DNA of 64,000 nucleotides from a virus (taxonomy: Duplodnaviria; Caudoviricetes), in IMG/VR virus record IMGVR_UViG_2731957577_000001, positions 64,001-128,000 of that record; one strand, written 5' to 3'. The translations under genes were made by a program, and so were the position numbers. Positions 25,932 to 30,452 of the stretch are shown here, piece by piece (within the stretch, counting starts at the first letter, position 1; the number at the start of each line of letters is the position of its first letter). A model generated the notes under the pieces. It did not search any database. It saw nothing but the letters and a program-made list of their open reading frames with translations, and had not been told where the DNA came from.

Positions 25932-25986
25932 TTGTCGAACCCCCATGATCGACGTATAATCAGATCATCAATCGAACACATGTTCG
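25932..25986 (+). promoter_or_regulatory. SigA promoter with LexA/DinR (SOS) box
   Basis: TTGTCG-17bp-TATAAT (25932-25960); CGAACACATGTTCG (25973-25986) fits CGAAC-N4-GTTCG. Confidence 0.8.
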
Positions 25987-26230: not shown

Positions 26231-26893
26231 ATGTGCGGACGCTTCACTCAAGCCTTTGAGAACTGGGGAGACGTCTTGAGAACCTTCGGGGTGGTGGACG
26301 ATGGATTCCGCGTGCCGCCCAGATACAACATTGCTCCCTCTCAAGACGTTCCCATCATTATCTCGGATGGGCAAGCCAGACGTATTGGACAGGTCCAATG
26401 GGGGCTGATCCATCCATGGTCTCAGTCATCCAGAAGTCGCATCCGTCCGATCAACACTCGGGCGGAGACACTGTTGGCCAATCGGTGGTTTCGATCCTTG
26501 GTTCCCAAAAAGAGATGCATCGTACCCGTGGACTCTTTCTACGAGTGGCGCCGAAACACCAAACAGCCCTTGCGCATCCAGCTCGAGCGCCGGCCCGTAT
26601 TTGCGCTGGCAGGTATTTATGACGTTTGGCACAGCAAAGACGGCCAAAAGGTCAGTTCCTTTGCCATTGTGACCTGTTCCCCCAATGTTTTTATGCTCGG
26701 GATCCATGACCGCATGCCCGTGATCCTAGATGAAGATGGCGTCAACTTGTGGCTGGATCGTTCCGTGACCGACCCGGAAGTCGTAACCTCCGTCCTCACC
26801 CCCACCACGGAACCTATGAAGGCTTATCCGGTCCACCCGAAAGTCGGAAATGTACGAAATGACGATCCTTCGTGCATCGAACCGTATGAGTGA
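26231..26893 (+). CDS. SOS response-associated peptidase (SRAP/HMCES abasic-site protein)
   Basis: 'MCGRF', 'RYNIAPSQ', 'WGL', 'NTRAET', 'FYEW', 'IHDRMPVIL'. Confidence 0.92.
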   Translation: MCGRFTQAFENWGDVLRTFGVVDDGFRVPPRYNIAPSQDVPIIISDGQARRIGQVQWGLIHPWSQSSRSRIRPINTRAETLLANRWFRSLVPKKRCIVPVDSFYEWRRNTKQPLRIQLERRPVFALAGIYDVWHSKDGQKVSSFAIVTCSPNVFMLGIHDRMPVILDEDGVNLWLDRSVTDPEVVTSVLTPTTEPMKAYPVHPKVGNVRNDDPSCIEPYE

Positions 26894-28578: not shown

Positions 28579-29274
28579 TTAGGCTGGCACAGGAGCCTGG
28601 AGCATCCCGGCTTGGATGAATGCATTCTGCAAATCTACCATCATTTCCTGCATGGCCGGCCAGCCGTCCTGCTTCTTTCGCAACACATAGCTGGGGTGAT
28701 ACGTATGGAGCATCGGGATGCCATTGAACTCTCTCCAGATCCCACGCTCTCGGCTGATCTTCAACCGGCTCCCTTCGGATCGCATGGCCCACATGGCCGG
28801 ATTCCCCAGGGTCACTATGACCTTTGGCTGAACAATCGCGATCTCATTAAACAAGTGCGCGTTGGAACAGCACCGTATCTCATCCATCGTGGGTTGGCGA
28901 TTGTTCACATCCGTCCGGCACTTGACGACGTTCGTGATATACAACCGCCGCCGGTCCACGCCAAGTCTCAACAACGCCCAGGTCAGGAGCTGCCCCGCCG
29001 CGCCGATCAGCGGTAGATCATAGGCCTCCTCTTGTGCGGCCGGCGCCTCCCCAATCAACATGACATCCGCTTGCCAACTCCCTGTACCACGGACTGGGCC
29101 CTGACATCCCAACGCTAACGGACAACGCCGGCATTCACGGATATTAGTGTCCATATAAAATTGCTCATCCACCAGGTGCTGAGTATATTGGTTGACATAC
29201 TGGATCTCCTGGAGCGGATATCCCGCGTTGACCAATTGACGTTCAATCTCAGACCAGTCACGGACGTCCGCCAA
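28579..29274 (-). CDS. Uracil-DNA glycosylase, family 4 (Fe-S)
   Basis: 'C..C.L', 'GEAP', 'TNVVKCR...NR.P..DE...C', 'YHPS'. Confidence 0.9.
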   Translation of the reverse strand: MADVRDWSEIERQLVNAGYPLQEIQYVNQYTQHLVDEQFYMDTNIRECRRCPLALGCQGPVRGTGSWQADVMLIGEAPAAQEEAYDLPLIGAAGQLLTWALLRLGVDRRRLYITNVVKCRTDVNNRQPTMDEIRCCSNAHLFNEIAIVQPKVIVTLGNPAMWAMRSEGSRLKISRERGIWREFNGIPMLHTYHPSYVLRKKQDGWPAMQEMMVDLQNAFIQAGMLQAPVPA

Positions 29275-29332
29275 GATCCTCCACCTCCATGTTTAACTTG
29301 TCAGCAACTTGTGTCAGACTTATAATGAGTGT

Positions 29333-29473
29333 TGAAGACGGCAATCATAAAAAAAGGCCCCACCAGCAGCCACTGGTGAGGCCTGGCGGGCCGACAAGGC
29401 CTACCCATTGCGCCGAGAGCAAAGCAATCTGTCAGCGGATGGTCGACTGGCCCGAGTCGACCATCATTCATTT
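29333..29473 (+). ncRNA. Putative antisense (antitoxin) RNA A
   Basis: TTGTCA-17bp-TATAAT (29298-29326); overlaps 3' end of locus A mRNA; ends at hairpin 29439-29464 plus CATTCATTT; ends approximate. Confidence 0.55.
29349..29384 (-). terminator. Terminator of locus A mRNA
   Basis: AGGCCTCACCAG/CTGGTGGGGCCT stem followed by a T-tract on the minus strand. Confidence 0.75.
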
Positions 29474-29559
29474 ATGATGAACTCAAAGCTGACAGCCAGG
29501 AGCCAGAGGTGTCCAGCTATAGGTACTGGGACGACTCTGATCCGAAGCACTCGCTTCAT
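29464..29559 (-). CDS. 31-aa peptide A (MKRVLRIRVVPVPIAGHLWLLAVSFEFIINE), candidate type I toxin
   Basis: AGGAGGTG RBS sequestered by upstream CCACCTCCT; extended -10 TGCTATACT (29689-29697); similar to peptide B. Confidence 0.65.
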   Translation of the reverse strand: MKRVLRIRVVPVPIAGHLWLLAVSFEFIINE

Positions 29560-29733
29560 CGGCACCACCTCCTCGGCTCACACCTAACGCAACAGGTAGA
29601 GCCGAGTCGGCCCACATCTGTGTGAGCCATAGGAGGTGGCTGGGCCTACAACGGATAGATTCATCTTACGATGAGTCCCGCCACTTCAAGTATAGCATCT
29701 ATATAACCCCATTTCCTAGAAGGAATTCTCAAT

Positions 29734-29979
29734 ATGAGCCGGATTGTCGAACGACCCATTCAATCCATCCAAACCAATGACCGAGGCGAACCGGTGGCAT
29801 GGCTGGATCGCGGTGTGACCCACCGAGTTGTTGAGATTCTCGATGCCTGGAGAGAGGCTGGAAATTGGTGGGAAGACGAACCGAATCGAGCCATGTATCG
29901 TGTGCTTACATCGGAGAACTACGTGTATGATCTCGAAGAATCCGAAGGCAAATGGAAGGTCTATAAAGTGTGGGATTAG
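29734..29979 (+). CDS. DUF6504-like small protein
   Basis: 'V.EILD.WRE.G.WW', 'YDL.....W....VWD'. Confidence 0.7.
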   Translation: MSRIVERPIQSIQTNDRGEPVAWLDRGVTHRVVEILDAWREAGNWWEDEPNRAMYRVLTSENYVYDLEESEGKWKVYKVWD

Positions 29980-30133
29980 GCCGCCCATTTGATTTCTATT
30001 CTAGATCATGGGCGTGCTATACTAGAAATGACCCATCTCTATAGATGGCCAACGTCTTGTTGTTGGCTGACACCCCCTCGGCTGCTGTGGGACGGTGCGG
30101 CGCCTTGTCGGAGGGCCGAGGGGGTGAGAGTTG

Positions 30134-30226
30134 ATGCGGTGGTTTCGCATTCGCGTGACGCTTTTACCGACCGGCCATGCGTTTCTGCCTTGGATCGTTC
30201 GTGTAGAGCTTACCATAAAGAAGTGA
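30134..30226 (+). CDS. 30-aa peptide B (MRWFRIRVTLLPTGHAFLPWIVRVELTIKK), candidate type I toxin
   Basis: GAGGGGGTG RBS inside a perfect 12-bp stem with 30071-30082; extended -10 TGCTATACT (30015-30023); similar to peptide A. Confidence 0.65.
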   Translation: MRWFRIRVTLLPTGHAFLPWIVRVELTIKK

Positions 30227-30331
30227 CGACCGGTTCTCAGCCAACCGGTCGTCGTTAGCGACTCACCATCAACTCCGACAAGCGTTGCACCGTCCGTCGG
30301 GACCCTGCCAGTCAGCCTCTGGCGGGGTCTC
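30217..30331 (-). ncRNA. Putative antisense (antitoxin) RNA B
   Basis: Minus-strand TTGTTA-18bp-TATAAT (30367-30338); ends at hairpin 30226-30252 plus CACTTCTTT; ends approximate. Confidence 0.55.
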
Positions 30332-30452
30332 ATTCTTATTATAGTCAATGTGCGTCTCATGTAACAACATGCTGAAACGAATCCAAAGGTCAATGAACTT
30401 ACTCTCCCAGAGGTCGACCTCTCTAAAAAGCATGATTCATAAAATCATGATT

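Follow-up and report, generated by a model that had tools for sequence, protein, structure and literature searches.

On balance, two small open reading frames (ORFs A and B) probably encode the toxins of two type I toxin-antitoxin-like cassettes that have diverged and are insulated from each other; the cassettes are located on an Alicyclobacillus mobile element. Both ORFs lie in the window, the whole stretch of 64,000 nucleotides that was analysed. Their translations matched exactly the two peptides quoted in an earlier note on this DNA. The region marked in that note (29464-30226) takes in both ORFs as well as an unrelated DUF6504 gene:

29464-29559, minus strand: ORF A, 31 codons + stop (codons 29467-29559, stop 29464-29466), from the translation
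30134-30226, plus strand: ORF B, 30 codons + stop (codons 30134-30223, stop 30224-30226), from the translation
29734-29979: DUF6504 gene, 81 codons, between the two divergent cassettes

The features listed in the earlier note as common to both peptides (RIRV, P-x(1-2)-G-H, a Trp and E-x-x-I) were all found in A and in B. As hallmarks of a family they fared unevenly: the Gly-His pair is kept, but the Trp column and E-x-x-I are not conserved family-wide. The only invariants across the family are Met1, the Gly-His pair and one Glu in the second half. RIRV appears as RIRL, RINV, KLQV or KISV among members, and a Pro is found two or three residues ahead of Gly-His in 8/10 of them. BLASTP comparison of the A and B peptides gave no match, and a peptide profile made from the B type only ranked A seventh of 89,037 genome frames (E=3.8). 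By these comparisons, the resemblance between the two peptides alone is not beyond chance. At the DNA level, a profile built from B-type cassettes at other loci aligned with locus A over the full 330 nt (E=2.6e-9). The B-type-only DNA profile also matched the A-type cassette of another species (G027/G031, E=9e-8), which combines an A-like peptide with the B-like RNA motifs TGGGRCGRTG and CAYCGTCCGTC. Since the cassette DNA is homologous end to end, A and B belong to one family of diverged paralogues, as had been proposed; the proof comes from the full-length cassette DNA profile, not from the peptides.

Each cassette is organised in the order extended -10 box, small 5' hairpin, long anti-Shine-Dalgarno hairpin, ORF, hairpin over the stop codon, spacer and terminator. 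The following elements were assigned to the sense mRNAs:

29689-29697, minus strand: extended -10 promoter of the A mRNA, TGCTATACT, in inverted repeat I4, conserved box
30015-30023, plus strand: extended -10 promoter of the B mRNA, TGCTATACT, in inverted repeat I4
29564-29640, minus strand: 5'-UTR hairpin of A, from predicted folds; its 5' arm CCACCTCC... pairs with the Shine-Dalgarno sequence GGAGGTGG
30071-30126, plus strand: 5'-UTR hairpin of B; the arm CACCCCCTCGGC pairs with GCCGAGGGGGTG, which holds the Shine-Dalgarno sequence
29355-29384, minus strand: Rho-independent terminator of the A mRNA, with a 13-bp stem and a T7 tail
30299-30331, plus strand: terminator of the B mRNA, from a terminator scan

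The TGCTATACT 9-mer of repeat I4 is identical ahead of A and B. Most other cassettes have TGnTATAAT or TGnTATACT at the equivalent place, and G027/G031 has TATAAT without the TG. The predicted transcripts run from ~29680 to 29350 (A) and from ~30030 to 30340 (B), each being ~320 nt long, and comparison of whole-mRNA folding with shuffled sequences gave z = -7.4 (A) and -7.2 (B). The anti-Shine-Dalgarno hairpin consists of 10-13 bp formed by a CACC(T/C)CC arm and GGAGGTG/GGGGGTG. Its two arms in B are complementary at 12/12 positions (I7), and the consensus helix displays compensatory changes. Folding of isolated leaders predicted a sequestered Shine-Dalgarno sequence in 9/10 cases, suggesting that the toxin mRNA is intrinsically repressed in translation. 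Terminator-like hairpins were detected on both strands of both cassettes, with 9 found between 29200 and 30500 against 0.7 expected. Leader-peptide attenuation was rejected as an explanation for this layout, as both mRNAs end in terminators and have no same-strand gene downstream.

Promoter and terminator signals on the opposite strand pointed to an antisense RNA in each cassette:

29298-29326, plus strand: promoter of the A antisense RNA (TTGTCA, 17 nt, TATAAT; 11/12 matches)
30338-30367, minus strand: promoter of the B antisense RNA (TTGTTA, 18 nt, TATAAT)
29334-29478, plus strand: predicted A antisense RNA, ~145 nt, from promoter and terminator signals; overlaps the last codons of ORF A
30213-30331, minus strand: predicted B antisense RNA, ~119 nt, from promoter and terminator signals
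30225-30253, minus strand: hairpin over the B stop codon, acting as putative terminator of the B antisense RNA, with a T-rich tail from the terminal Lys codons of ORF B

The A promoter is the best sigma-70-type site between 29200 and 30500. An unbiased scan of the same interval returned three promoter-like sites, corresponding to the two antisense promoters and an alternative hexamer that shares the -10 box of B; all are opposite in strand to the ORFs and located just past the sense terminators. A TATAAT-like box was present at this place on the opposite strand in 10/10 cassettes compared, seven of these boxes being perfect. The background per 40 nt is 0.26% for a perfect TATAAT box and 3.9% for a box with one mismatch. 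The A antisense RNA would end at a hairpin (29438-29465) followed by a T-rich tail. Both antisense RNAs were predicted to fold into three stem-loops, with z = -5.6 for A and -3.0 for B. On these signals, each cassette has a candidate gene for an antisense RNA that is complementary to the mRNA and is served by a promoter and a terminator of its own. The Lys/Asn codons at the end of the ORF, read in reverse, give the U-rich tail of the antisense RNA; the final codons of both ORFs (30213-30226 and 29464-29478; Lys-Lys and Ile-Asn-Glu) encode the tail of the antisense terminator. This double use may constrain the C-terminal residues of the peptides.

Besides the anti-Shine-Dalgarno hairpin, a second pairing was identified within each mRNA, involving the interior of the 5' hairpin and the spacer that follows the ORF, with ~24 bp of complementarity:

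29386-29428, minus strand: 3' spacer of the A mRNA, pairing with the interior of its own 5' hairpin (GTCGGCCC with GGGCCGAC; I10)
30272-30297, plus strand: 3' spacer of the B mRNA, pairing with the interior of its own 5' hairpin (CTCCGACAAG...CACCGTCC; I9, I21)

The cognate A duplex had a predicted energy of -57.7 kcal/mol, compared with -35 kcal/mol for the same interior with the B spacer and -36.7 kcal/mol for shuffled sequences; the cognate B duplex reached -52.4 kcal/mol against -36.3 kcal/mol with the A spacer. The complementarity is maintained in A and B by wholly different sequences, and relatives show a compensatory change from GGTG/CACC to GATG/CATC. Covariation statistics are thin, as expected from a small family confined to one bacterial family. 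Because the pairing is kept through unrelated sequences and cross pairs stay at the level of shuffled ones, A and B should not cross-talk. The minimum free energy structure of the full B mRNA contained a 27-bp long-range helix, the Shine-Dalgarno sequence being held by a weak partner inside the ORF. When the part covered by the antisense RNA was blocked in silico, the B Shine-Dalgarno sequence shifted into the 13-bp hairpin. In the A mRNA it was closed with or without the modelled block. We therefore treat a Shine-Dalgarno switch upon antisense binding as a hypothesis, modelled for B only.

We propose the following scheme. Each cassette would produce an ~320-nt mRNA with a long leader and a ribosome-binding site locked in a hairpin, the interior of which could alternatively pair with the 3' spacer further along the transcript. 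A consensus promoter would drive the synthesis of a convergent antisense RNA (115-145 nt) covering this spacer and the last codons, and the antisense-mRNA duplex would be marked for degradation. Binding of the antisense RNA to the spacer would also leave the anti-Shine-Dalgarno hairpin closed, so that no peptide is made. Following a drop in antisense RNA level, some mRNA would be translated into a two-stranded beta-hairpin of 27-33 residues with the invariant Gly-His at its tip, which in the B type would have one hydrophobic face and another made of Arg, Lys and Glu. This peptide may inhibit growth without forming a transmembrane helix, through association with copies of itself at the surface of the membrane or on a target in the cell. 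We infer the transcription of both RNAs, and likewise the toxicity, the fold and the target of the peptides.

The proposed organisation is close to that of described Gram-positive type I families (TxpA/RatA, BsrE-G-H, YonT), in which antisense RNA and mRNA overlap at the 3' end of the latter, including the last part of the ORF (PMC8594479). The cassettes resemble the bsrG/SR4, txpA/RatA, bsrE/SR5 and yonT/SR6 pairs of B. subtilis prophages in their convergent genes, and also in the 3' antisense overlap including the ORF end and in their location on a large mobile element (PMC8594479). Upon SR4 binding, the duplex that holds the bsrG Shine-Dalgarno sequence grows from 4 to 8 bp (PMC3834814); strengthening of this duplex by an antitoxin bound at the distant 3' end is a further likeness, seen here in silico (PMC3834814). 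Unlike the B. subtilis pairs, the peptide and RNAs described here have no sequence similarity to them, the peptide is predicted to be a beta-hairpin without membrane helix, and the leader is much longer, with its 10-13 bp anti-Shine-Dalgarno hairpin and ~24 bp of interior-spacer complementarity. Pairing between the 5' leader and the 3' end of the toxin mRNA, predicted here and kept by covarying sequences, is shared with hok/Sok and aapA1/IsoA1 (PMC6733600). In those systems, the antisense RNA sits inside the mRNA or towards its 5' side and translation is activated by 3' trimming, whereas the antisense RNA of the cassettes would cover the 3' partner of the long-range helix itself; hok/Sok and aapA1/IsoA1 also differ from cassettes A and B in belonging to Gram-negative organisms and encoding helical toxins. 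Similarities to Fst and the RNA I-RNA II pair (par of pAD1) include transcripts that converge, a stem-loop in the leader that covers the ribosome-binding site and a small peptide with a central Pro-x-x-Gly, together with an acidic tail in the A type. However, par RNAs interact by direct repeats at their 5' ends, whereas the repeat of the cassettes is inverted and intramolecular, and Fst is a transmembrane helix (PMC8309996).

Searches of Pfam (E<=0.1), NCBIfam, PHROGs and PADLOC (E<=1) gave no match for any of 9 members, nor did Pfam type I toxin models (including Fst) or PDB chains at E<=10. None of the Rfam antitoxin RNA families (RatA, SR-type, Sok, Sib, IstR) reached gathering score in the window, and Rfam matches at E<=10 between 29200 and 30500 were at chance level. 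In agreement with the earlier note, which did not recognise the family and held that a match to a described toxin would speak against its reading, the peptides were without counterpart in these libraries.

Six-frame profile searches identified 11 intact or nearly intact cassettes in 9/45 Alicyclobacillaceae species genomes. Searches of 19 genomes of the sister family, ~370 further genomes of the class, IMG/VR and, with the motif used, metagenomes did not find the cassette. A profile search of 1.84 billion representative proteins returned one match, a 31-residue sequence of the A. cellulosilyticus type. RNA-motif pattern scans of genome contigs, IMG/VR and metagenomes recovered Alicyclobacillus loci only; the remaining matches had no matching ORF and were attributed to chance. 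In other Bacilli, peptide matches were weak (E between 4e-4 and 1e-2 for each genome) and were dropped, as they did not show the cassette anatomy. The B type is represented in A. herbarius, A. kakegawensis and A. cellulosilyticus, with a second copy in the genome that carries the window; the A type was found in A. fructus, A. fodiniaquatilis and two more genomes. The third intact cassette of the window's own genome is of B type (G000:C61:10309-10644, L003) and sits between metallophosphoesterase and DUF4406 genes. Its DNA is 97% identical to the A. herbarius copy and 73% identical to B of the window. The nearest relative of the latter is the A. cellulosilyticus copy (84% DNA identity), compared with 73% for the other copy of its own genome. 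An A-type remnant was also detected in this genome (G000:C60:1962-2073, minus strand; nhmmer E=1.4e-5). It corresponds to the 3' untranslated part (the post-stop hairpin arm, the CACCGTCC motif and the terminator) and has neither ORF nor leader. The A-type copy of G062 (L156:1340-1720) adjoins an rve integrase fragment; it has lost the anti-Shine-Dalgarno hairpin and the ATG at the aligned start while keeping intact the antisense -10 box and the terminators, and is possibly decaying or under different control.

Comparison of related loci did not reveal a conserved block around the cassettes. Neighbours vary by species (peptide deformylase/SDR, Mutator transposase, integrase fragment, UvrD, Y-family polymerases), and DUF6504 as a conserved neighbour was not borne out across loci. 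As neighbours differ between species, the cassettes move as self-contained units; in several species they sit on mobile DNA. The window encodes a DnaB-like helicase, Pol III alpha, DnaN beta clamp, DnaG primase and UvrD, along with a class I/II RNR large subunit, ThyX, an SNF2 helicase and a methyltransferase. The window belongs to a large mobile element or prophage that has genes of its own for replication and nucleotide metabolism and resembles SPbeta-like elements, which likewise bear type I toxin-antitoxin pairs.

Several genes near the cassettes have a link to DNA repair. A family-4-type UDG gene is located at 28579-29274, and Y-family polymerase genes were found 1-2 kb or less from the cassettes in A. 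kakegawensis and G027. At 25973-25986 the window has its sole zero-mismatch LexA/Cheo-type box, the perfect palindrome CGAACACATGTTCG. This box precedes an SRAP (SOS-response-associated peptidase) gene (26231-26893) by ~245 nt, which suggests that the SRAP gene of the element is SOS-controlled. SOS control of the cassettes themselves was considered in view of the nearby SRAP, UDG, DUF6504 and Y-family polymerase genes and was dropped, since the sole good LexA-type box (25973-25986) is far from them and box counts were those expected by chance.

The position of A and B among the replication and repair genes of the element could also fit a small regulatory or accessory protein that is not a toxin and is kept under antisense control, for example one that docks as a strand on a host or phage protein, or that serves in element exclusion. 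With a GRAVY of 0.2-0.9, the peptides of the family are not as hydrophobic as usual toxins, and their invariant His and Glu would suit such a role. We nevertheless consider it rather unlikely: selfish addiction modules fit better with self-contained units moving among unrelated contexts, and a product locked twice, by burial of its Shine-Dalgarno sequence and by an antisense RNA, is typically one whose synthesis has to be prevented.

Structure prediction was in agreement with the proposal of the earlier note that the peptides are beta-hairpins, not helices. AlphaFold2, using as input a family alignment of 8-9 related sequences, modelled both as two-stranded hairpins with Gly-His at or near the turn. 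The A hairpin has strands 2-15 and 18-30 with Gly-His at the turn (best pLDDT 81, five models between 74 and 81); the B hairpin has strands 3-12 and 20-29 (best pLDDT 72, the other four models between 55 and 60). In the B register, read from sequence and strand limits without coordinates, Phe, Ile, Val, Leu and Trp would lie on one face and Arg, Thr, Glu and Lys on the other, and the conserved Arg would face the invariant Glu. Searches of the PDB with Foldseek and of the ESM Atlas by shape gave nothing meaningful for a 31-residue hairpin. The Atlas feature search returned nothing for A, and for B only unnamed clusters of 28-34 residues at 0.93-0.94, which we take as a lead only. Two properties ascribed to the hairpins stood in part. 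The peptides had been called cationic, which is true of the B type (net charge +4 to +5) but not of the A type, where the charge is only +1 to +3. The alternation of polar and hydrophobic residues is visible in the cores FRIRVTL and VRVELTIK but is statistically no stronger than chance: most members have a beta-type hydrophobic moment above their helical one, yet it does not significantly exceed that of shuffled sequences (z 0-1.7).

A helical structure had been named in the earlier note as evidence against its reading; hairpin predictions and insertion energies both pointed away from one. With a rough Hessa-type scale, the best 19-residue window of every member gave an insertion sum of +5.8 to +10.9 kcal/mol, compared with -3.0 to +3.6 kcal/mol for transmembrane segments of two membrane proteins and +6 to +16 kcal/mol for the best windows of soluble controls. 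By this measure, no segment of any member reaches the hydrophobicity of a membrane helix, and the peptides are predicted to differ from membrane-associated type I toxins in having no hydrophobic alpha-helical transmembrane domain. The alternative is an ordinary type I toxin that would, like Fst, Lpt or TisB, be a short membrane helix kinked by proline, the AlphaFold hairpin being an artefact of a shallow alignment. The classic RNA layout, a pLDDT of only 72-81 and a central uncharged stretch of 15-20 residues are compatible with it, and the helices of Fst and Lpt also bear a functional Pro (PMC8309996). We regard a short kinked helix through this stretch as unlikely: the stretch contains one or two Pro plus Gly and His, insertion energies resemble those of soluble controls, beta-branched or aromatic residues make up 37-53% of the peptides, the best of the five A models is a hairpin, and the Pfam type I toxin models did not match.

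Protegrin, tachyplesin, arenicin and thanatin are cationic beta-hairpin antimicrobial peptides that are secreted, processed from a precursor and clamped by disulfides. The family described here resembles such peptides in having two strands and a turn of similar length and, in the B type, an Arg-rich amphipathic pattern. Unlike them, it has no Cys, signal sequence or precursor and would act inside the producer, and its A-type members are barely cationic. A disulfide-stabilised cationic hairpin is at odds with the 0 Cys counted in 9 aligned members, whose net charge ranges from +1 to +5; the G062 peptide would have one Cys only if an upstream ATG were used. A RiPP precursor was likewise rejected, as there is no modifying enzyme nearby. 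Returning to the toxin reading, we put forward tentatively, as a possibility that may well not hold, that the peptides represent the first structurally distinct class of type I toxins: cytoplasmic, disulfide-free amphipathic beta-hairpins that would oligomerise on or in the membrane, or add a strand to a target protein, with the tip His and the strand Glu having functional roles. Pore formation, also suggested in the earlier note, is equally speculative.

Translation of the two frames was supported by their pattern of substitution. Values of dN/dS, for which a result near 1 had been named in the earlier note as evidence against its reading, were 0.09-0.40 for B-type pairs and 0.08-0.70 for A-type pairs (homologues in 4 other species). 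Changes between B-type pairs were mostly at third positions, one example pair having 2, 1 and 8 changes at codon positions 1, 2 and 3. These data indicate that the peptide is under purifying selection, and with 27-33 codons the ORFs have the size (<60 codons) of toxin genes kept by selection. It is very improbable that the unit is instead a pair of overlapping non-coding RNAs with untranslated frames, as the high degree of RNA structure, the lack of Prodigal-type annotation and the single family member (unnamed, 31 residues) among ~15 billion predicted proteins might suggest, because substitutions concentrate at third positions with dN/dS far under 1, the ORF frame is open in all members while other frames contain stops, and a strong Shine-Dalgarno sequence (GGAGGTG/GGGGGTG) lies 8-9 nt ahead of the ATG/GTG.

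Type I-like modules are now documented in Alicyclobacillus; the literature found by our search reports none in this genus, the T1TAdb paper included (PMC8594479). Membrane-associated type I toxins described so far are all built on a transmembrane alpha-helix (PMC8309996), and if the prediction holds the family would depart from this pattern. Searches for new type I toxins filter candidates by hydrophobicity (PMC8594479, on Fozo et al. 2010). If it is true that a type I RNA grammar can be combined with a beta-hairpin product, such a filter would miss a class of toxins, and a new mode of action would become available for study. As sequence-orthogonal neighbours, A and B would make a natural pair in which to follow the co-evolution of antisense specificity and of 5'-3' locking of the mRNA.
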